A stretch of 8,233 nt of DNA from a virus. Its lineage: Duplodnaviria > Heunggongvirae > Uroviricota > Caudoviricetes. Position numbers and translations under genes: made by a program. The notes below the pieces were generated by a model. The model was not told where the DNA came from. It did not search any database and saw only the letters and a list, made by a program, of their open reading frames with translations. The DNA lies in the IMG/VR virus record IMGVR_UViG_2548876858_000010, positions 1 through 8,233 of that record. One strand, written 5' to 3'. Below, piece by piece: positions 1 through 8,233 of this stretch (positions are counted from its first letter, which is position 1; each line of letters begins with the position of its first letter).

Positions 1-7
1 CCCACGC

Positions 8-54
8 CAGCGCAGACTCTTTTACCCGTTCTCTTCTGCGCTGGCTCTTTTTTT
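8..54 (+). terminator. Putative rho-independent terminator facing right (10-bp stem 8-17/35-44, 17-nt loop, T-run 48-54)
   Basis: Read directly: ccagcgcaga pairs with tctgcgctgg, followed by ctcttttttt. The loop is large, so confidence is moderate. Confidence 0.35.
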
Positions 55-229
55 ATGATGCTGCTGCATTTACCTCTGGCACCAGGCTTTCTATCTCAAC
101 ACAATACGTGGTACTTCTTGTAACCAATATCATAACGATTAATCGACATAGAATTTCTCCCGAGTACAGGAACAGAGTTAAAAAGCCGGAATCAAATCGC
201 AGGATGAACATCTGCCAGTAACAGGGCGT

Positions 230-258
230 AAAAAAAAGGCCGCGCCATGCGCAGCCGG
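230..258 (-). terminator. Putative rho-independent terminator for minus-strand transcription (GC-rich stem about 238-258, U8 tract from plus A-run 230-237)
   Basis: Minus-strand RNA reads ggcugcgc-aug-gcgcggcc then UUUUUUUU. Stem is 7-8 bp with one G-U pair. Confidence 0.45.
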
Positions 259-458
259 AAATAAAGGGATAACGATGATAGTTTGAGAAAAACAGAAATA
301 ACACTTTTGTTGCAGCGCATGGTGCCGGGTGCCTCCCGGTGAATTCAGCCGGTGTCACTGAACCCGCGTCGGCTTGCCTATAACATAATAAATGCTACCT
401 ACACCAGTCGCCCCTCCGCACAGGGGGATTCACCATGCAGTAGTGTTTTTAATAAACA

Positions 459-489
459 GCAAATAAAAAAATCAAGCATTATTTATGCT
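459..489 (-). terminator. Weak AT-rich hairpin plus U-tract at the end of the TerB/small-membrane operon
   Basis: Minus strand: AGCAU-AAAUA-AUGCU followed by UGAUUUUUUUAUUU. The stem is only 5 bp and AT-rich and overlaps the last codons of the 55-aa ORF. Confidence 0.3.
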
Positions 490-639
490 GTTTCTTTTTA
501 TCACCGACCACAGCAATACCACAATGCCGCAGACCAGCACCCCATCCGCCAGCACCGACATGATTCTGCTGGTGAAATCCACCATCACCACCAGAAACAG
601 CAGGAGTGCAGCCACAGTCAGGCGCAGTTTTACCGTCAC
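472..639 (-). CDS. Small hydrophobic protein (55 aa, two predicted transmembrane segments), translationally coupled to the TerB-like gene
   Basis: GTG start at 639..637 overlaps the TerB-like stop as GTGA; GGAG lies 8 nt upstream. Manual translation: MTVKLRLTVAALLLFLVVMVDFTSRIMSVLADGVLVCGIVVLLWSVIKRNSINNA. Below the ORF-track cutoff; start codon uncertain (in-frame ATGs at codons 19 and 27). Confidence 0.35.
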   Translation of the reverse strand: MTVKLRLTVAALLLFLVVMVDFTSRIMSVLADGVLVCGIVVLLWSVIKRNSINNA

Positions 640-1068
640 AGGTGATTCTCCAGACGAAGACCCAGAACACCGGCAATCTCTTCCAGCACCTTGCGCTCTT
701 CCGGCTCAATTTCGCCTTCTGCCTCCGCAATGGCCACCGCCACATCCAGCACATCTTCCGCTTCACGCGTATCGTGTTTCACATCCTCGATCTCACGTAA
801 CGCCGCACGACGACCAATTTTAAAGTTCGTATCCAGCTGACCGATAATGGTTGCGCTCATCGCATTAATTTCTGACGTAAACGCGGACAGCGCTGGCTGA
901 TTACGCAGTACCTGTTCGATCTTCGCTTTCTCGGAAGCCTCACATTCACCATCTGCACAGGCCACCAGGTATGCGGCGTTAATCACCGCCTGTGCCAGAT
1001 CGCGTTTTTCAAACTTTTTAATTTCCGTTGCCGCTCTGCGGGCTTTTTTTACCAAAAATACCAAACAT
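636..1068 (-). CDS. TerB-domain (tellurite-resistance TerB-like) protein with an apparent frame break at an A7 run near the 5' end
   Basis: Track ORF 636..1097 translates to a TerB-like sequence (…KKARRAATEIKKFEKRDLAQAVINAAYLVACADGECEASEKAKIEQVL… acidic C-terminus). The only ATG with a good SD (AAGGAA-N7-ATG, ATG at 1068..1066) gives MFGIFGKK then hits a stop after 16 codons. Removing one A from the A7 run (plus T7 at 1044-1050) joins it to the long frame. Confidence 0.65.
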
Positions 1069-1237
1069 CGTGACGTTCCTTTGGGTGGGTGAGCCAACGC
1101 CCGGGAGCGATCTGCCCACAGAGAAAGTCACACTGACCACTCCATAAGCTCCCCCCGAAAGGCTCTGTGGTTGGTATGCGCCGGGCGTGGTGCGGATACA
1201 AAAAAGGTCCGCAAAAGCGAGCGAGGGAAAATAAGTG

Positions 1238-1314
1238 TGGTGCGTTGTACTGGGTTCGAACCAGTGACCGATTGCTTAGAAGGCAATTGCTCTGTCCGGC
1301 TGAGCTAACAACGC
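1238..1314 (-). tRNA. argO: tRNA-Arg, anticodon TCT (77 nt)
   Basis: Manual cloverleaf: GCGTTGT/ACAACGC acceptor, GCTC/GAGC D-stem, anticodon loop CTTCTAA, ACTGG-TTCGAAC-CCAGT T-arm, 3' ACCA encoded. Symbol is by analogy with the Stx-phage ileZ-argN-argO triplet and is not verified. Confidence 0.85.
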
Positions 1315-1327
1315 AGAATACCGATAA

Positions 1328-1404
1328 TGGACCGCCATCGGAGACTCGAACCCCGCGAAACCAGCTTCGAAGGCTGGCGTTCTATCCCGATGAGCTAATG
1401 GCGG
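1328..1404 (-). tRNA. argN: tRNA-Arg, anticodon TCG (77 nt); one D-stem mismatch and discriminator U
   Basis: Manual cloverleaf: CCGCCAT/ATGGCGG acceptor, anticodon stem CCAGC/GCTGG with loop CTTCGAA, T-loop TTCGAGT, 3' TCCA. D-stem GCTC/GAAC has one mismatch. Symbol by analogy only. Confidence 0.75.
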
Positions 1405-1405
1405 T

Positions 1406-1481
1406 TGGTGGCCCTTGCTGGATTTGAACCAGCGACCTGGCGATTATGAGTCGCTCGCTCTCACCACTGAGCTAAAGGGCC
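1406..1481 (-). tRNA. ileZ: tRNA with CAT anticodon, ileX-like (probable lysidine tRNA-Ile2; elongator Met not excluded)
   Basis: GGCCCTT…AAGGGCC acceptor, anticodon loop CTCATAA, T-loop TTCAAAT, CCA encoded. Close to the E. coli ileX sequence from memory. Separated by 1 nt from the next tRNA. Confidence 0.85.
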
Positions 1482-1521
1482 GGGAGCAGAATAATAACGG
1501 TGCATAATTAATTCTTCAATA

Positions 1522-2580
1522 TCATCCGTTCTGGCTGACTAAATCCTGTACTTCCCGAACCGTCTGCTCAAAACGTTCAGTCTCCAGTTCAACACCAGTT
1601 GCACGACGTCCCAGCGCCATCGCTGCTTTGACTGTCGAACCCGACCCCATGAAGAAATCTGCAACCAGGTCTCCCGGACGACTGCTTGCGCTGATTATCT
1701 GCTGCAACATTTCTGCCGGTTTTTCGCACGGATGTTTCCCGGGATAGTAATGCATCGGTTTATGCGTCCACACATCGGTGTACGGCACCTGCACCGTCAC
1801 ACCGAAATACCGCCGCAGATGCTTATATTCACTCTGCAGTTCCGTATACTGCCGGTTCAGTTCACTGTATGTGCTGACCAGCTGGTGGTGTGGCTTTTCC
1901 AGTTCACAGCGTTGATGTTTTTCTGCTGCAACACGCGCAAACAACGCCTGTAATTTCAGATAATCGCCTTCGTTCGGCAACTGCCACTGACTGATACCAA
2001 ACCAGTGCGAAACCATGTTTTTCTTTCCGGTGGCTTCCGCTATCTGTTTTGACGTTATTCCCAGTGATTTACGCGCATCACGAAAGTAAGAAATCAGCGG
2101 GGCCATGACGTGCTGTTTTAGCTCGCGCCCCTTTGCCGCATAGCCGTCATTTTTGGGCTGGTATGGCCCCTGATAATGTTCTGCAAACAGAATGCGTTCT
2201 GTTGCCGGGAAATACGCCCGCAGGCTTTCCTTGTTGCATCCGTTCCAGCGTCCGGACGGCTTCGCCCAGATAATATGGTTCAGCACACTGAAGCGTTCAC
2301 GCATCATGATTTCGATATCAGATGCCAGGCGATGACCACAGAACAGGTAAAGACTTCCGGCAGGTTTCAGCACCCGCCAGAACTGCGCCAGACACTGGTC
2401 CAGCCACTTCAGGTAATCATCGTCGCCCTTCCACTGGTTATCCCAGCCCTCAGGCTTCACTTTAAAGTACGGCGGGTCCGTGACTATCAGGTCAACAGAA
2501 TTTTCGGGTAACGACCGGATAAATTCCAGGCAGTCGGCGTTGATTAACTCACAACTGGATATTTTTACAGTATTAAGCAT
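1522..2580 (-). CDS. Orphan DNA methyltransferase, beta-class (likely N6-adenine; N4-cytosine not excluded), 352 aa
   Basis: Track ORF. Catalytic DPPY motif near the N-terminus (LIVTDPPYF) and AdoMet motif FFMGSGST near the C-terminus, the order typical of beta-class amino-MTases. No adjacent restriction endonuclease ORF. Confidence 0.9.
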   Translation of the reverse strand: MLNTVKISSCELINADCLEFIRSLPENSVDLIVTDPPYFKVKPEGWDNQWKGDDDYLKWLDQCLAQFWRVLKPAGSLYLFCGHRLASDIEIMMRERFSVLNHIIWAKPSGRWNGCNKESLRAYFPATERILFAEHYQGPYQPKNDGYAAKGRELKQHVMAPLISYFRDARKSLGITSKQIAEATGKKNMVSHWFGISQWQLPNEGDYLKLQALFARVAAEKHQRCELEKPHHQLVSTYSELNRQYTELQSEYKHLRRYFGVTVQVPYTDVWTHKPMHYYPGKHPCEKPAEMLQQIISASSRPGDLVADFFMGSGSTVKAAMALGRRATGVELETERFEQTVREVQDLVSQNG

Positions 2581-2672
2581 GGATCATTAAGCCTGTCTCT
2601 GATAGGCTCATTCTGCTTTTGCGCAAAGCAGTGGGCCTGAGGTTTGCTTGTGAACCCAACGCATGAGCAGAT

Positions 2673-2703
2673 GGCTGGTGGGTGCCCCTAACACCCACCA
2701 GCC
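2673..2703 (-). promoter_or_regulatory. Perfect 12-bp inverted repeat with 7-nt loop in the methyltransferase leader
   Basis: ggctggtgggtg-cccctaa-cacccaccagcc read directly. No U-tract follows on either strand, so it is not an intrinsic terminator. Further hairpins at about 2613-2631 and 2590-2606. Confidence 0.35.
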
Positions 2704-2716
2704 GCCCATTTACCAC

Positions 2717-2744
2717 AAATAAAAAAGCCTTCACTGCGGAAGGC
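2717..2744 (-). terminator. Rho-independent terminator at the 3' end of the small HTH-like ORF
   Basis: Minus strand GCCUUC-cgcagu-GAAGGC followed by UUUUUUAUUU. The stem includes the stop codon. Confidence 0.5.
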
Positions 2745-2928
2745 GTCTGTAACAACCGAACTGATAGTCTGCCAGACCCGCCATAACCAGCTGGGTCAGT
2801 ATTAACTGGCAGCGTTCGCGTGAAAGGTAAGTATTCTGTGCAATCTCCCCGACTGTCGCCGGTTCGGTAACGCTTAATTCATTAAACACTACTCTGGCGG
2901 TTTCTGTCATATCCTGCTGTTTTAGCAT
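2731..2928 (-). CDS. Small protein (65 aa) with a helix-turn-helix-like segment; possible DNA-binding regulator
   Basis: Internal ATG at 2928 preceded by AAGGGAAAAAGAC; the longer track ORF (to 3015) would run into the pR'/tR' region. Sequence MLKQQDMTETARVVFNELSVTEPATVGEIAQNTYLSRERCQLILTQLVMAGLADYQFGCYRRLPQ. Function is inferred. Confidence 0.5.
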   Translation of the reverse strand: MLKQQDMTETARVVFNELSVTEPATVGEIAQNTYLSRERCQLILTQLVMAGLADYQFGCYRRLPQ

Positions 2929-3048
2929 GTCTTTTTCCCTTTTCCGGTTAACGTGACACACCAATAACTCTTGTCGAAAAAGCCAGCAAGCTGAAAGACA
3001 GGTATTCACCGCCACCAGCGCGTTTACTGTACTGACGCGATTTCAGTC

Positions 3049-3072
3049 ATAAAAAACCCGCCAGGCGGCGGG
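3049..3072 (-). terminator. tR'-like intrinsic terminator downstream of the late promoter
   Basis: Minus strand CCCGCC-gccu-GGCGGG followed by UUUUUUAU, about 60 nt downstream of the predicted pR' start. Confidence 0.6.
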
Positions 3073-3121
3073 GTGTAAAAAATCTTCTAACGTCAGGCAT
3101 AAAACGCCCATCGTTAGAGCA

Positions 3122-3149
3122 AATTTACCACAGATTCGGGAAAAATCAA
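3122..3149 (-). promoter_or_regulatory. pR'-like late promoter with Q-utilisation region
   Basis: Minus strand TTGATT-(16 nt)-TAAATT then TGCTCTAACGATGGG, resembling lambda pR' (TTGACT-N17-TAAATT-TGACTCAACGATGGG) as recalled. Lies immediately downstream of the Q stop. Confidence 0.55.
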
Positions 3150-3154
3150 CAACA

Positions 3155-3976
3155 CTATCGCGTTACCCTCTTTAACTGCCGCTCCGCCCATGCCTCTTCA
3201 ATGTCAAACCGAACCACCAACGTATCGTAAAAGCGTTTCACTGATTTTTTCCACGTATCAAGCGTGATAGCACTCGTCACTTTGCATATGGCATTAAATG
3301 CCTCCGTTGATGGCAGCCTTTCACAGCCACGACCACCACAACGCTGGCAATCTCTGATAACAGGCATACCACGTTTTACCGACTCTTCACGATGAATGGC
3401 GACACCACGCCCACGGCAATCCTTACAGGCGGTGGAAACCTCACCCTTTCCGCCACACTCCGGACAGGCAACTTTTACCACCTCCCTGACTTTTTTCCAT
3501 TCTTCCCAGTAAGACGGATACACGCCTTTTGTGCACTTTGCCCACACTGGTGGCTTACCATCCGGATACTGGATCTTGTTTGTAAAAACCTCGCTTTCAA
3601 TAAATTTTTTTCCGTGACAGCAGGGGCACTGTTTTTTGCTCGCCGCGCTACGGGCATAATCTTCAAACGCATACGAAGCCATAATGCGCATCACTACCGG
3701 TTTTATTTCTGCCGGAAGTTTTCTCAACGCCGCCACACGATCGCACCGACTGAGTGCATAATCTGCCAGTAATTCTGTTGCCCGCGCCCTGTCATTCATA
3801 CTGATGCCCATTTTCCCCAGGAACGCAGAAAACCCCATCTCAGCCCGATTCTGTGTCATGCCCTGCGCGGCCATCACATCAGTGATACTCAGCGCATCTT
3901 TTGACGTTGAGGCCGATGCATCGGTCAGGCCAGGGGATTTTGGGGAGTAGTATTTCGGTAAATCTTCCAGTTTCAT
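3155..3976 (-). CDS. Q-family late-gene antitermination protein (273 aa) with DnaJ-like CxxCxGxG zinc-finger repeats
   Basis: Track ORF. ATG overlaps the rusA stop (ATGA). Motifs CPECGGKG, CKDCRGRG, CQRCGGRG plus CPCCHGKK. Directly upstream of pR'/tR'. Size and position resemble Qin quuQ-type Q proteins (recalled). Confidence 0.8.
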   Translation of the reverse strand: MKLEDLPKYYSPKSPGLTDASASTSKDALSITDVMAAQGMTQNRAEMGFSAFLGKMGISMNDRARATELLADYALSRCDRVAALRKLPAEIKPVVMRIMASYAFEDYARSAASKKQCPCCHGKKFIESEVFTNKIQYPDGKPPVWAKCTKGVYPSYWEEWKKVREVVKVACPECGGKGEVSTACKDCRGRGVAIHREESVKRGMPVIRDCQRCGGRGCERLPSTEAFNAICKVTSAITLDTWKKSVKRFYDTLVVRFDIEEAWAERQLKRVTR

Positions 3977-4347
3977 TTTTTGACCTGCCCTTCAAGCATT
4001 ATGGGGTAAATCTTCACCCCCAGACGTCCACCAGATACTGGCTGACCACGAACGATATTGATTTCATCAAACTGCTCATCGTCCATTAACACTCCCGCAT
4101 GCGTCAGCGCATCCAGCGGTGCTTTCAGGATATTGTCCAGGTCGCGACGACGCTTATCCGGTGGCTCTGCAATCACCTTTATCGCCAGCCTTCCGGACAG
4201 GCTTAATTTCAGCCGCTGCTGGCGAACAATAAGCGCCACAGCCCGGCGATAACGCTTTCCCTCCTCCGAGATAAAATATGTGCTGCCACGGCGTCGCCAG
4301 TAAGTGTTCACCGTCGGCGGGTAAGGTAAAACCAAATCTATGAGCAT
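3973..4347 (-). CDS. rusA: RusA Holliday-junction resolvase (124 aa)
   Basis: Track ORF MLIDLVLPYPPTVNTYWRRRG…DKRRRDLDNILKAPLDALTHAGVLMDDEQF… matches the RusA family signature. Strong SD AAGAGGTGA upstream. Confidence 0.9.
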   Translation of the reverse strand: MLIDLVLPYPPTVNTYWRRRGSTYFISEEGKRYRRAVALIVRQQRLKLSLSGRLAIKVIAEPPDKRRRDLDNILKAPLDALTHAGVLMDDEQFDEINIVRGQPVSGGRLGVKIYPIMLEGQVKK

Positions 4348-4359
4348 CAGTCACCTCTT

Positions 4360-5406
4360 TTACCCAAGCACGCCAGTTGCAAAGGCGTGATCAAGAAAAC
4401 GAAAAATTAAATCAACCTGAGAACCATGCTTTTCTTCGAACGCCAGAGGATCCGCATGAAGCTCGTTGTGATGCTCCCGACACAGCGGTAGCGTGAAAAT
4501 ATCGTGAGATTTTGTCCCCATTCCGCCCTGACCATGACCAATCAGGTGATGGGGATCGTCGGCTGGCTTACCACAACACGCACACGGCTGTGTCTTCACC
4601 CAGCGTGTGTATTTCTCGTTAACCCAGCGGCGACGTTTAGGTCGTTTCATGAAAGATTCCGGAGACTCAGGATCAACGGCAATGCTGACCACCGTCTCTT
4701 CCTGTGGCGGGTTTTGCTGGTGGGCGTGAGGCAGCGGCGCAAGATTTTTTGTGCGCTGCTTCAGTATGCTGGTGGCGGTCTGCTCTCCCGGTACGATGTC
4801 GCTTTCACGGTACATTGAGCGGATTTTTTCCGCACGCAACCCCAGCGAACGACGTAATACCGCTTCCGGTAGCGCGTCCGCCACCTGATTGCGGACCGCC
4901 CACCAGGATAATTCAGCCAGCGATAATTCCCGTTCCTGCGAGCCATTCATTGCATGGAGTATGACGTCAATCATCCATGCAGACAGGTTTTGGTGAGCAA
5001 GTTGCCCGAGTGATTCGGAGGTCTGGTCGCGCAGCTGGTTGTCGCAGTGCCAGCACAACACCATTGCGCCGGTACCATAACGGTGAATGACGGTTTCACT
5101 GTGGTGATAATCGCCGTGTGGCCACTGGCAGGATTTAACATGGCGCAGTAACCAGTCAGACAATGCGCCAGCGCCACCAGCAGCACGAATCACTCGTTCG
5201 TCGCTGAAAAATGGCAGTAATGATTTATCCTCCGCCAGCGGCTGGCGAACGGCAGGAACGACCCCGGACGACAGATTACGCATGCTTTTCGGTTCCGGCT
5301 CCACCAGTACCCGGGTATTGTGGAATACCGGCATGGATTCACAGCCCGGCTTAACGATCACCAGCCCGAGTTCCGGTACCAGAACAGGTCGAAGTAATAC
5401 CCGCAC
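4360..5406 (-). CDS. ydfU: DUF968/YdfU-like prophage protein with C-terminal HNH-like Cys/His motif (348 aa)
   Basis: Track ORF. GTG start at 5406 preceded by GGAGG-N4; alternative ATG at 5334. C-terminus CACCGKPADDPHHLIGHG…LCREHHNELH. Symbol by synteny with Qin (hokD-rem-ydfU-quuQ) and similar length, recalled not verified. Confidence 0.75.
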   Translation of the reverse strand: MRVLLRPVLVPELGLVIVKPGCESMPVFHNTRVLVEPEPKSMRNLSSGVVPAVRQPLAEDKSLLPFFSDERVIRAAGGAGALSDWLLRHVKSCQWPHGDYHHSETVIHRYGTGAMVLCWHCDNQLRDQTSESLGQLAHQNLSAWMIDVILHAMNGSQERELSLAELSWWAVRNQVADALPEAVLRRSLGLRAEKIRSMYRESDIVPGEQTATSILKQRTKNLAPLPHAHQQNPPQEETVVSIAVDPESPESFMKRPKRRRWVNEKYTRWVKTQPCACCGKPADDPHHLIGHGQGGMGTKSHDIFTLPLCREHHNELHADPLAFEEKHGSQVDLIFRFLDHAFATGVLG

Positions 5407-5407
5407 G

Positions 5408-5686
5408 TTACCTCCAGATACGTTGCTGGAATGTGCGGGACGGACGCGGTGGCCGTTCGGAGTAAGGGAGCCTGACGGAGATTATCCAGTGACGGTAGTC
5501 GAGGCTAAGGGCTTTTTTAACCTCGCATCCGCGCCTGCGGTAACACTGAATGAGCCATTCGGCCTGTTCTTCAGTGCATGGGGGGTGCTGGTACCAGTCT
5601 GACTTAAATGCATGAGAATACCGCTCGTGCGTGTGGGCAAGAACGGTCGAATTATCATGATTGTAATATTTTGCGTTGCGTGCCAT
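5408..5686 (-). CDS. Hypothetical prophage protein (92 aa), His/Cys-containing, directly upstream of the DUF968 gene
   Basis: Track ORF with ATG at 5686 and GGAG 9 nt upstream. Its stop is 1 nt from the DUF968 GTG start. I cannot assign a family from memory. Confidence 0.55.
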   Translation of the reverse strand: MARNAKYYNHDNSTVLAHTHERYSHAFKSDWYQHPPCTEEQAEWLIQCYRRRGCEVKKALSLDYRHWIISVRLPYSERPPRPSRTFQQRIWR

Positions 5687-5752
5687 CGGTTTTCTCCGGT
5701 GGCACGGTGTTACTCAGCGGGAGTTCAGCCCCGCGCAAGATTGTAGATGAGT

Positions 5753-6004
5753 TTATTCTTCTGAAAAAGCAGAAAAGCCAGCTTTTATTCCGATCTCTTT
5801 CAATGCCTGTAATGAAGTGACAAACTCACCGTCGCGCAAGATAAATCCGTCCGTCACTCGGGCATCCACAAAATTAATTAACGCAGCCCCATTTTTTTGC
5901 AAACACACAATGCGGTAATGACTAACAATATTTCCATTTTCAACGCACACAGCATAGAGGCCATCTTCACAAAAAATTTTACGCAGTTCTTCGATGTTCA
6001 TCAT
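5753..6004 (-). CDS. rem: Rem-like small prophage protein (83 aa)
   Basis: Track ORF with tandem ATG ATG start and SD GGAAGGA. Same length and same position (between hok and ydfU-like) as rem in Qin; sequence identity not verified. Confidence 0.55.
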   Translation of the reverse strand: MMNIEELRKIFCEDGLYAVCVENGNIVSHYRIVCLQKNGAALINFVDARVTDGFILRDGEFVTSLQALKEIGIKAGFSAFSEE

Positions 6005-6082
6005 CAGAATCCTTCCGGATAATTAGCTCTCCCCTTTAAGGGACCATCCCTCTTATCCCTGCGCGCTACTTAAGTATTTTTG

Positions 6083-6112
6083 ATTCTATTCCGGCACCGT
6101 CCAGAACTTCAA
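6083..6112 (-). promoter_or_regulatory. Candidate sigma70 promoter upstream of rem-like gene (TTGAAG-N18-TAGAAT)
   Basis: Hexamers read directly on the minus strand between the hok terminator and the rem SD. Confidence 0.3.
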
Positions 6113-6122
6113 ACGCGTTGAA

Positions 6123-6150
6123 AATAAAAACAAAAACCCGCCGAAGCGGG
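6123..6150 (-). terminator. Rho-independent terminator of the hok transcript
   Basis: Minus strand CCCGC-UUCG-GCGGG followed by UUUUUGUUUUUAUUUU. Confidence 0.6.
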
Positions 6151-6220
6151 TTAAGTGCGGGTGCGTTGAGGATGCCTGACACATCAGAGGTGGCGAGGGA
6201 TTTCTCCCCCGCCTGGTCTC

Positions 6221-6376
6221 TTACTCCTCAGGTTCGTAAGCTGTGAAGACAGCGACCTCCGTCTGGCCGGTTCGGATTCGTACCTCGCAGAGGTCTTTCC
6301 TCGTTACCAGTGCCGTCACTATGACGGTTAAACAGATGACGATCAGGGCGATTAACATCGCCTTTTGCTGCTTCAT
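6221..6376 (-). CDS. hok: Hok-family type I toxin (51 aa)
   Basis: Manual translation MKQQKAMLIALIVICLTVIVTALVTRKDLCEVRIRTGQTEVAVFTAYEPEE, matching the HokD/RelF sequence as I recall it. Missing from the ORF track because it is under 60 aa. Confidence 0.92.
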   Translation of the reverse strand: MKQQKAMLIALIVICLTVIVTALVTRKDLCEVRIRTGQTEVAVFTAYEPEE

Positions 6377-6432
6377 AGCCTGCTTCTCCTTGACCTTTCG
6401 GTCCGTAAGAGGCTAATCTCTATGTGTCGCAT
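6373..6432 (-). CDS. mok: mok-like leader reading frame (19 codons) ending in TGA overlapping the hok ATG
   Basis: ATG at 6432 with GAGG 8 nt upstream; MRHIEISLLRTERSRRSRL. Start region aligns with the R1 mok start (cuAUG…GAUAGCCUCUUAC) from memory. Shorter than R1 mok. Confidence 0.45.
   Translation of the reverse strand: MRHIEISLLRTERSRRSRL
6390..6419 (+). promoter_or_regulatory. Sok promoter candidate (TTGACC-N18-TAATCT), antisense to the hok/mok translation-initiation region
   Basis: Hexamers read on the plus strand in the position equivalent to the R1 Sok promoter. Confidence 0.45.
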
Positions 6433-6495
6433 AGATATGGCCTCAGATTAATGTTAAGCGTCTTGCAGGACGCGTAATGTTAACTGGGGCTTTTC
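6426..6495 (+). ncRNA. sok: Sok-like antisense RNA (approximate extent; 3' end not resolved)
   Basis: Inferred from the promoter at 6390-6419 and complementarity to the hok mRNA leader. Contains hairpin GCGTC-ttgcag-GACGC; I could not identify a clean terminator. Confidence 0.35.
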
Positions 6496-6552
6496 TCTAT
6501 CTGCCTTTTGGTGTTCATGCCTGAGACAGATAGCCTCAAGCACCCGCAGTCA

Positions 6553-6579
6553 TTCTACTTAACTAAGATTTCCCCGCAA
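6553..6579 (-). promoter_or_regulatory. hok mRNA promoter candidate (TTGCGG-N16-TAGAAT), transcript start near 6546-6548
   Basis: Hexamers read directly. The predicted 5' end GCGGGUGCUUGAGG is complementary to a 3'-UTR element at 6157-6171. Confidence 0.45.
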
Positions 6580-6634
6580 ACCGTTTTTGTCCGGCACAGT
6601 AAATATCCAACTAAACCAATGGCGTTCGCTGTAT

Positions 6635-6814
6635 TTACCGCCAGTATTCAATGCACATGACCGCCATGAACACCCCTAAAAAAAGGGCATTTATATGTCC
6701 AAACATTAATATCAAAACATCAACTTTTTCCATATACCTTGCTGTGAAGATGATGGGCATACATGATGCGAACAACCAGAACGCAACAAACAAAAACTGC
6801 AATGCGTTTTTCAT
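6635..6814 (-). CDS. Small membrane protein (59 aa, two hydrophobic segments) in an AT-rich islet
   Basis: ATG at 6814 with AGGGGG 4 nt upstream; MKNALQFLFVAFWLFASCMPIIFTARYMEKVDVLILMFGHINALFLGVFMAVMCIEYWR. The track lists a GTG-extended 72-aa form (6635..6853). Confidence 0.45.
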   Translation of the reverse strand: MKNALQFLFVAFWLFASCMPIIFTARYMEKVDVLILMFGHINALFLGVFMAVMCIEYWR

Positions 6815-7296
6815 TATTCCCCCTACAATCAATGTGCAATAACATTTAAACACACCTCAATTTAGCCGGACATATAAATATCTAAACCAGAAAAAATCAC
6901 TTACATAGCGTTACAAACTCTTTAGTCTAAATATTCATCGTAAAACATTCCCCATACTTATCAGCCCGTTCTGCGCCAGGTAGCTCATTGCCTTATCTGG
7001 GAATCTGTAATCAGGTTTCCGGATGCTGGTGGATTTTCGCATTTTAGTTGTTCATAAAAGTGCACAGCTTTAACCAGTTCTTCTGATGTAACCGGGACTG
7101 GCGGGGCAGTGAATAAGGCCTGAATTTCATAGTTCGGCCTGTCGTTACAATCCTCTTTTTTCGGTACATATTTCCAGTCACCAGACCACTACTTCCCCTG
7201 AAAGTCCGTAACGCCTTTTTTTCACGTAGCGATATCGCCATGCCACTGTTTTTGCTTGCCCCGCCGTTTCATGCCCTTCCTGATAATTAACCTCGC

Positions 7297-7473
7297 TCAT
7301 TCATCGCCCCACTCATCACAATATGCTTCGACCGGAGTTTTTCCTGCTTCATAATCATCACGCCATGCTTCAGCATCAGCAGCACTGCCACCACGTAACT
7401 CTGCATAGTCCATTAACAGTTCATGCCATTCTTCAAAACCGACGTTGTATTTAGTTGAACCAAAATCAGCCAT
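7297..7473 (-). CDS. Small acidic protein (58 aa), W/Y/D/E-rich
   Basis: Manual translation MADFGSTKYNVGFEEWHELLMDYAELRGGSAADAEAWRDDYEAGKTPVEAYCDEWGDE. Its ATG overlaps the upstream 60-aa ORF by 8 nt (AATGGCTGA). Not in the ORF track. Confidence 0.45.
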   Translation of the reverse strand: MADFGSTKYNVGFEEWHELLMDYAELRGGSAADAEAWRDDYEAGKTPVEAYCDEWGDE

Positions 7474-7648
7474 TTTGTTCTTCCTCTTCGTCTTTTATTT
7501 CGTGATATGAGTAATTGCAGTAGTTAAAGAAAATATCTTTTGCTTCGTCATGTATTTCATCAGGCGTCGCATCATCATCCACTTCGAATTCATCCTCGAA
7601 ATCTCCACCGGCTATTCCCGTTTCAATAATTATTTTAAACTTTCGCAT
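7466..7648 (-). CDS. Small, strongly acidic protein (60 aa)
   Basis: Track ORF MRKFKIIIETGIAGGDFEDEFEVDDDATPDEIHDEAKDIFFNYCNYSYHEIKDEEEEQNG, about 20 D/E against 5 K/R. AGGAGG lies upstream, separated from the ATG by a stable hairpin. Confidence 0.5.
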   Translation of the reverse strand: MRKFKIIIETGIAGGDFEDEFEVDDDATPDEIHDEAKDIFFNYCNYSYHEIKDEEEEQNG

Positions 7649-7656
7649 TTAACTAC

Positions 7657-7672
7657 CGCCCTTTCGGGCGGC
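7657..7672 (-). promoter_or_regulatory. GC hairpin with GAAA tetraloop between an AGGAGG SD and the ATG of the 60-aa ORF
   Basis: Minus strand AGGAGG-CCGCCC-GAAA-GGGCGG-uaguuaa-AUG, read directly. Confidence 0.35.
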
Positions 7673-7741
7673 CTCCTGATGTTCTGAGGGTGCAGAAATC
7701 CCTCCGGTTAAGGATTAAATTTTTAACAGAGCTAAATTTAA

Positions 7742-8098
7742 TTATTCAGTTCTGGATTTTGTCGCCCTGCGTATCCGCGCTTTCGCGTTACGCTCAATCT
7801 GAATTAGCTTTTCTATATTTTTTCGCCTTTCCCGCTCCTCCTGACGCAAGAGCCTTACATCATCTGCCAGTCTGGTTTCTCTTTTCGCCACAGAGAGCAT
7901 CCAGTCAAATGGTTCCACAACTGCACCGCAGATTTTACAGCGGACCTGACGCTCTTTTTCGTCAACCCGGACAGAGGCGTGATGACAATATGGTCTTTCC
8001 GATGGCTCATAAAGAAAATTAACCTGATTACGAGGGTCATCCTCTTTTACCGGAAATAAAACGATATTGCTTAACTCATCCTCTGGTTTTATTTCCAT
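7742..8098 (-). CDS. Hypothetical prophage protein (118 aa) with zinc-ribbon-like Cys/His cluster and basic coiled-coil-like C-terminus
   Basis: ATG at 8098 preceded by GGAGAGGAG. MEIKPEDELSNIVLFPVKEDDPRNQVNFLYEPSERPYCHHASVRVDEKERQVRCKICGAVVEP… then an R/K/E-rich tail. The track's 137-aa version starts further upstream and overlaps the 47-aa ORF. Confidence 0.55.
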   Translation of the reverse strand: MEIKPEDELSNIVLFPVKEDDPRNQVNFLYEPSERPYCHHASVRVDEKERQVRCKICGAVVEPFDWMLSVAKRETRLADDVRLLRQEERERRKNIEKLIQIERNAKARIRRATKSRTE

Positions 8099-8219
8099 GC
8101 TCCTCTCCTTTGATGCGAATGCCAGCGGTAATTGAAGCCTGATAGCTAATTTCACTCACAGTACCGCCTCCTGAAAATTTAATGAACAATTCAATACGTT
8201 CTTTGGTAATAGTGGTCAT
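8076..8219 (-). CDS. Possible small ORF (47 aa) with strong SD, overlapping the start of the 118-aa ORF
   Basis: AAGGAG-N6-ATG at 8219. MTTITKERIELFIKFSGGGTVSEISYQASITAGIRIKGEEHGNKTRG. Below the ORF-track cutoff; coding status uncertain. Confidence 0.3.
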   Translation of the reverse strand: MTTITKERIELFIKFSGGGTVSEISYQASITAGIRIKGEEHGNKTRG

Positions 8220-8233
8220 GTGTTACTCCTTAA

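Follow-up and report, generated by a model that had tools for sequence, protein, structure and literature searches.

The 8,233-nucleotide stretch of DNA analyzed here (positions 1 to 8,233 of the IMG/VR caudoviral record IMGVR_UViG_2548876858_000010; hereafter the window) carries two overlapping genes, one encoding a TerB-domain protein and the other a membrane protein of 55 amino acids (aa), which are almost certainly a copy of the phage cassette already named tciA-tciB. The pairing itself is known and ordinary, and any novelty would lie in its function and in side observations on the leader and on homopolymer tracts. Taken as a whole, the results are best explained by an accessory, membrane-associated cassette that probably acts in lytic growth. 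The copy of tciA in the window is a derived allele, which is treated separately below. All coordinates of genes and elements in the window refer to the minus strand.

The product of the first gene, TciA, is a small, acidic and soluble single-domain protein of the TerB family. The open reading frame (ORF) at 636..1097 matched the Pfam TerB profile (PF05099) over residues 36-148 with an E-value of 5.5e-13 and 49.7 bits (cutoff 24.4), and matched the solved structure of Klebsiella KP-TerB (2JXU) over residues 13-136 with an E-value of 1.1e-7. Both matches agree with the TerB-domain call made in a preliminary description of this DNA. TciA also matched PHROG 632 ('tellurite resistance', E 1.4e-65) and was 40% identical over 140 aa to TciA of phage P1 in BLASTP (E 6e-28). 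The NCBIfam DjlA model gave a weak match (E 1.3e-5), far under the cutoff of that model. An AlphaFold2 model of TciA, calculated with 18 homologues, was an all-helical six-helix bundle with a pLDDT (predicted local distance difference test) of 83.6. The best Foldseek matches of this model were the TerB-like structures 2H5N (probability 1.00, template modelling score 0.55-0.63) and 2OU3 (probability 0.75), with E-values of only 0.015-1.6. Proteins of the TerB family have two acidic DG....E motifs that are putative metal-binding sites. The first of them is present in the window as ADGECEASE, and the second reads AEGEIEPEE at a place where 17 of 17 aligned homologues have ADG. The ratio of nonsynonymous to synonymous substitution rates (dN/dS) of tciA was 0.02-0.07.

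The second product, TciB, is predicted to be an inner-membrane protein with two transmembrane helices, 51-55 aa long among the copies of the cassette. It matched Pfam DUF3927 (PF13064, E 7.5e-16) and PHROG 1470 ('TciB-like', E 5.5e-28), and was 48% identical to TciB of P1 (E 8e-12). Its hydropathy profile displayed two hydrophobic stretches flanking a polar core. The positive-inside rule suggests that both ends of TciB face the cytoplasm and that the conserved acidic core DFTS..MSVLADG lies at the turn of the hairpin. This core was near-invariant among the relatives (DF[TS]S..MS[VI]L[AS]DG), and the dN/dS of tciB was about 0.1-0.4 between genera; within E. coli the ratio was uninformative, as there were too few differences. 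The 55-aa ORF was retained as an ORF in every relative examined. The two-helix membrane ORF proposed in the preliminary description was thus confirmed by hydropathy and by the DUF3927 match, and the worry raised there, that it might be unconserved or show no coding signal, found no support. The Pfam profile search suggested in the same place identified both proteins, and the GTGA overlap of stop and start was also found as described. This overlap suggests translational coupling of tciA and tciB.

Apart from phages 434 and 2B8, each DUF3927 gene examined directly followed a TerB gene, mostly with stop and start overlapping, and this was so in lambdoid, P1-like, N4-like and jumbo phages. The pair is common in prophages of E. 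coli, and all 80 IMG/VR loci retrieved with TciB had a TerB gene directly upstream. The loci of other genera retrieved with TerB, which came from Pantoea, Pseudescherichia, Franconibacter and others, displayed a DUF3927 ORF directly downstream with overlapping stop and start in 7 of 7 cases; here the TerB proteins were 87-96% identical and the DUF3927 ORFs about 50-78% identical. When 1.84 billion representative proteins were searched by profile, only 112 DUF3927 clusters (50% identity) were detected, almost all of them standalone proteins of 50-65 aa. The distant cluster representatives that were traced to contigs lay directly behind a TerB-family gene in all five cases, with one of these TerB proteins just under the Pfam cutoff. 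Some form of stop/start overlap (GTGA, TAATG or TGATG) was kept in E. coli, Pantoea, Pseudescherichia, Franconibacter, P1, D6, Fostie and the metagenomic relatives. TerB-DUF3927 fusions were also considered as evidence of interaction, and those found (P0134, P0183, P0251, P0288 and P0294) were rejected because they resemble frameshift or chimeric artefacts.

Virulent phages were among the carriers. The N4-like Salmonella phage FSL SP-076 carries the pair, and in the jumbo phage pSal-SNUABM-04 a two-helix ORF of 60 aa, annotated as DUF3927 in the phage record, comes after the TerB gene; the match of this ORF to the TciB profile was weak (E 0.003) and it had no Pfam match at E <= 0.01. Across four unrelated types of enterobacterial phage, temperate as well as virulent, purifying selection maintains TerB and DUF3927 as a strictly coupled module. 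Where DUF3927 is missing, a gene for a membrane protein still tends to come after the TerB gene. In Vibrio phage D505 (L096, 1207-2787), TerB is followed by a 360-aa protein of the Na+/Ca2+-exchanger family (Na_Ca_ex, PF01699, E 4e-28), an arrangement which may be a sign that TerB proteins of phages cooperate with membrane proteins that handle cations. Pseudomonas phage AF (L094, 1614-1835) has an unannotated ORF of 73 aa with one hydrophobic helix, the GTG start of which overlaps the stop of TerB.

The preliminary description did not recognize the pair as a described system, and in this respect it needs to be corrected. The genes are named in P1, and labels such as tciA, tciB, TciA/TerB-like or TciB-like are found in the records of phages JLK-2012, PPyecE, D6, 434, Fostie and FSL SP-076. 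Of 5426 complete E. coli genomes, 787 have genes at this locus that RefSeq annotates side by side as 'tellurite resistance TerB family protein' and 'DUF3927 family protein', and as a rule several prophages of one genome carry them. The genes of the window should be named tciA and tciB, a label that was given purely from homology. The tciA-tciB-tciC genes of P1, which are also present in D6, P7 and SJ46, share with the window the homologous TciA and TciB, the gene order, the overlapping stop and start and the tRNA (transfer RNA) genes alongside. However, P1 encodes a third small gene, tciC, which the window lacks, and no tciC-like ORF was found between the tciB stop and the small RNA (sRNA) gene that follows it. 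The P1 genes are part of the C1-controlled ban operon while those of the window belong to a Q-dependent late operon, and, unlike P1, the window has a conserved leader and a tciA that is severed from its ATG by an A7 run. In P1, the pair is dispensable for plaque formation, and tciA, tciB and tciC were all scored as non-essential in a CRISPR interference screen (PMC10695390). The tci genes are transcribed during P1vir infection (10.64898/2025.12.28.696737).

The position of the pair in different phages points to expression in the lytic cycle, because the cassette belongs to a Q-dependent late operon here and to the C1-operator-controlled ban operon of P1, and two metagenomic phages have it behind cro. 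In the latter two (contigs L180 and L181), a distant TerB-DUF3927 pair directly follows cro, and a divergent CI-like repressor gene adjoins in L181; this is an early rather than a late operon. In Fostie and in Pantoea stewartii, the pair follows a promoter-like sequence and a terminator downstream of Q. The purifying selection on both genes, their strict adjacency, the carriage by virulent phages and the inferred lytic positions together favor an accessory function in lytic growth. A role in the lytic cycle rather than in protection of the lysogen is, on balance, the preferable assumption, held with somewhat less assurance than the cassette reading as a whole.

Judged from sequence, TciA and TciB are likely to act as a membrane complex. 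Such a complex would form at the inner membrane, with TciB as the membrane partner of the TerB domain, the part that TerC has in ter operons and the N-terminal membrane helix has in DjlA. The cassette would be transcribed during the lytic cycle, as its gene positions indicate, and the complex might sense or buffer divalent cations or the condition of the membrane. Until the holin fires, the infected cell could thereby be spared killing or depolarization by colicins, by a superinfecting phage or by suicide systems of the host. We regard this specific role in membrane protection or ion homeostasis as tentative and, as it stands, unlikely.

Other systems with TerB domains resemble the cassette in part. 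In the terZABCDE cluster for tellurite resistance, colicin resistance and phage inhibition (IncHI2 plasmids and O157 islands), TciA has a full-length single-domain homologue in TerB, and terB is followed by a gene for an integral membrane protein, as in the phage pair. However, TerZ, TerA, TerC, TerD and TerE are absent at the phage pair, and the 55-aa hairpin partner is unrelated to TerC. The defence systems Shango (SngA), Bunzi (BnzA) and Dionysus (DinB, with the membrane proteins DinA and DinC) likewise combine a TerB domain with membrane proteins, and membrane surveillance has been proposed for them. In contrast to these systems, the phage pair has no significant PADLOC match and no helicase, ATPase or pore-forming toxin as partner, and its carriers are phages, including virulent ones, and not defence islands. 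In DjlA, a membrane-anchored DnaJ-like co-chaperone, a TerB-like domain is also held at the inner membrane, but DjlA unites anchor and J domain in one chain; the phage pair lacks a J domain, and its anchor would be a protein of its own. TerB domains are emerging in anti-phage systems, and a two-gene phage version with a 55-aa partner would be a simple model for TerB at the membrane.

The tciA gene of the window has a derived 5' end (Table 1). Position 1097 is merely the first start codon after a stop, and therefore it is not the real start of the TerB protein but an artefact of ORF calling. The relatives outside the A7 lineage, both from other genera and from the other intact E. coli allele classes, have the N-terminus MFG..KK read from an ATG located 8 nucleotides (nt) behind AGGA, and TciA of P1 starts from the homologous ATG (MLGILKKK). 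Alignment with JLK-2012 displayed A6 where the window has A7, and the intact alleles with the same 5' sequence were also A6. Because of the one extra A in this run, the ancestral ATG of the window is out of frame. It opens an ORF of just 16 codons that ends at 1018-1020 and the product of which would be MFGIFGKKSPQSGNGN followed by a stop, so that the conserved reading MFG..KK fails. The only in-frame start is the TTG called by RefSeq, which is located 12 nt from the Shine-Dalgarno sequence and gives a product of 142 aa. Programmed -1 frameshifting on the A-run was rejected as a rescue because it does not restore the frame; a +1 or -2 shift would be needed. TciA could be made from the A7 allele only through the poorly placed TTG or through rare transcriptional slippage of RNA polymerase.

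The A7 run is not a sequencing error, because 554 of the 771 genomes of E. coli that carry the gene contain the exact A7 91-mer. The exact A6 90-mer was present in 8 of the same 771 genomes, and the remaining in-frame alleles are diverged in sequence at this place. Among 90 copies compared, about 40 were intact with the ATG in frame, 10 had only the A7 change (including the window and one copy of EDL933), 26 combined A7 with a shared GAG-to-TAG nonsense codon located 290 nt before tciB, and about 14 were otherwise disrupted by a replaced 5' end or other frameshifts. In all of these 90 copies tciB was intact at about 55 codons (53-63 aa, some of them truncated by contig ends). Since A7 separates tciA from its ATG and the second DG motif has become EG, the output of TciA is probably low or nil in the window while tciB is intact; this allele is probably expressed weakly or not at all at the level of TciA.

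The preliminary description compared the layout of the pair to abortive-infection or superinfection-exclusion modules. According to this explanation, the pair would be expressed from the prophage, TerB would sense infection at the membrane, and TciB would depolarize the cell or keep DNA from entering, to the benefit of the lysogen population. Shango, Bunzi and Dionysus, all of them validated defence systems, do contain TerB domains, for which a membrane watch has been proposed (10.1101/2025.09.30.679545), and the terZABCDE cluster is reported to confer phage inhibition and colicin resistance (Whelan 1995, as cited by others). The pair has the cargo position of stx, one of its products is a small membrane protein, and a promoter-like site before the tRNA genes together with the weakened terminator upstream of the leader could permit expression in the lysogen. 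However, TciB matched no PADLOC model and the best match of TciA (PDC-S48, 35 residues, E 0.017) was not significant; there is no helicase, ATPase or pore-forming partner nearby; and the virulent phages FSL SP-076 and pSal-SNUABM-04 carry the pair. All contexts seen fit a lytic promoter, and the operons that hold the pair would be repressed in lysogens. In addition, tciA is frameshifted, nonsense-mutated or replaced at its 5' end in about half of the 90 copies, which is unexpected for a gene that protects the host. Lysogen defence is weakened by the lack of a significant PADLOC match, by the carriage in virulent phages and by the frequent decay of tciA in prophages, and it appears rather improbable. 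Superinfection exclusion during the lytic cycle, comparable to that by Imm and Sp of T4, is counted within the lytic cassette and not as lysogen defence. It is far less likely still, to a degree that we give it little weight, that the pair tunes the timing of lysis, with TciB as a holin-like or antiholin-like protein controlled by TciA just upstream of a class II holin. Such a holin gene directly follows the sRNA in E. coli EC12. Two helices are common to TciB and class II holins, and the positive-inside rule suggests that TciB shares their N-in/C-in topology. On the other side, TciB displayed no similarity to holin families in Pfam or PHROGs, and the pair is located far from the lysis genes in P1 and in the N4-like, jumbo and cro-proximal contexts.

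An explanation of a different kind concerns the window alone, where tciA might be a pseudogene in early decay, only tciB, if anything, would be made, and the cassette would be idle as a pair. We consider this quite possible, though not the favored explanation. It agrees with the displacement of the Shine-Dalgarno-proximal ATG by A7, which leaves the in-frame TTG to compete with that ATG, and with the change from D to E in the near-invariant second motif, which was seen in this allele only and in one heavily decayed copy (L014). Furthermore, the shared TAG codon is present in 26 of the 36 A7 copies, about a dozen more copies have a replaced 5' end plus TAG, and tciB is intact in all decayed copies. 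However, the frame of the window is open over 142 codons, RefSeq lists what is read from the TTG as an ordinary protein, 554 genomes contain the exact A7 sequence, and the diversity among the A7-only alleles looks constrained, with a ratio of nonsynonymous to synonymous polymorphisms (pN/pS) of 0.12, although this constraint may be inherited through recombination.

Several observations weigh against an accessory lytic cassette that works as a pair and against the low output of TciA from its A7 allele. Phages 434 and 2B8 carry TciB without TerB, and TciB follows a 247-aa membrane protein without Pfam match there, while TerB is present and DUF3927 absent in many phages of Pseudomonas and Vibrio; each protein can therefore occur alone. 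The terminator upstream is weakened in the window and a promoter-like site precedes the tRNA genes, so read-through in lysogens is possible. A7 is the commonest E. coli allele and its ORF is open over 142 codons in the window, and therefore TciA may still be expressed. Finally, the literature searched contained no experiment on TciA or TciB.

The cassette is part of the Q-dependent late operon, with the phage tRNA genes on one side of it and the lysis genes on the other (Table 1). Its location downstream of Q, the methylase and the tRNA triplet, in the cargo slot of the late operon that stxAB fills in Stx phages, was correctly given in the preliminary description.

Table 1. Coordinates of the tciA-tciB cassette and of surrounding genes and elements in the window
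Feature	Coordinates	Strand	Remarks
RusA	3973-4347	-	gene order along region
Antiterminator Q	3155-3976	-	Pfam Antiterm, E 2e-49
N6/N4 DNA methylase	1522-2580	-	
Three phage tRNA genes, directly upstream of cassette	1238-1481	-	CAT, Arg-TCG, Arg-TCT
Terminator-like hairpin and T-run, 5' of leader	1200..1223	-	alignment of upstream regions
Conserved non-coding leader of cassette	1069..1198	-	poly-G 1151-1156, CCTTT 1158-1162
Ancestral tciA ATG, out of frame here	1066..1068	-	8 nt behind AGGA Shine-Dalgarno 1077-1080
tciA, TerB family, 142 codons and stop	636..1064	-	from TTG 1062-1064, used by RefSeq for identical alleles
A7 homopolymer, derived +1 insertion relative to A6	1044..1050	-	
GTGA overlap of tciA stop and tciB start	636..639	-	
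tciB, DUF3927, 55 aa	472..639	-	GTG start, own GGAG Shine-Dalgarno at 648-651, 8 nt upstream
STnc100/PasD-type sRNA, directly after tciB stop	284..464	-	Rfam RF02076, 117 bits, E 8e-26
Intrinsic terminator after sRNA	238-256	-	terminator scan

The other ter genes (terC, terD, terE and terZ) were absent from the window and its relatives, where the neighbors of tciA are the tRNA genes, tciB, the sRNA gene and an esterase or holin gene. The tRNA genes also adjoin tciA-tciB in P1, D6, JLK-2012 and the jumbo phage pSal-SNUABM-04. The tRNA with the anticodon CAT (1406-1481) was assigned to Met by ARAGORN and is annotated as tRNA-Ile in the RefSeq relatives (ileX-like), in which case its anticodon would be lysidine-modified.

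The 130-nt leader was 74-78% identical between genera, compared with 34-48% at the 4-fold sites of tciA. It did not align with P1 and matched no Rfam family at E <= 0.1. The RNAalifold consensus paired CCTTT with the Shine-Dalgarno sequence AAAGG (1078-1082), with three compensated pairs; the minimum free energy was no better than that of shuffled sequences (z = 0.39), and the structural evidence is otherwise weak. On this modelled pairing, the leader may be a translational control element. A second long-range helix, formed by CCACAGAG with CTCTGTGG, was unsupported, as one lineage displayed an uncompensated pair break. The leader was also rejected as a small ORF, because relatives differ by 1-nt indels and it is thus non-coding, and as the PasA sRNA, which is located beyond the esterase gene; only PasD/STnc100 adjoins tciB. 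All relatives have the terminator hairpin in front of the leader, and in Fostie and Pantoea stewartii the hairpin comes directly after the promoter-like sequence downstream of Q. Mismatches weaken the copy of the window, where the hairpin was not called in a consensus terminator scan.

The length of the poly-G tract in the leader varied from about 5 to about 12 between copies, as noted in the window and at the loci L040, L079, L124 and L163. The form in most alleles is G5-T; the tract is G6 in the window and about G8-G12 in some prophage contigs. This could be slipped-strand variation or assembly noise. A more elaborate model can be drawn from these features, in which a minimal phage TerB membrane module would have an undescribed lytic role (countering membrane-triggered suicide defences, superinfection exclusion, or holding cations or potential until lysis), the leader RNA would hide the ribosome-binding site, and the slippage-prone poly-G and poly-A tracts (the latter at codons 7-9) would turn expression on or off, or dim it, in prophages of E. 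coli. We consider this complete model very improbable.

The sRNA gene downstream of tciB is of the Hfq-dependent STnc100/PasD type. A 2026 preprint (PMC13192938) counted TerB with the genes that are conserved in the neighborhood of the PasA and PasC sRNAs, described the relation of PasD to STnc100, and placed PasD upstream of the esterase gene. The SASA/NanS-p esterase gene (nanS-p) is normally the next gene, and only about 20 nt of it are left in the window (1-148); homology to EDL933 and JLK-2012 stops near position 128. The closest relative, E. coli EC12 (98.1% identical), has the class II holin gene next to the sRNA gene. The short esterase remnant and the holin in EC12 indicate that the esterase gene was deleted in this phage lineage.

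Further matches were detected distant from the cassette. An ORF for a hok-like protein of 51 aa is located at 6221-6376, with a match to the sok antisense RNA (RF01794, 107 bits) at 6374-6545, and a weak isrK-like match was found at 6131-6212.

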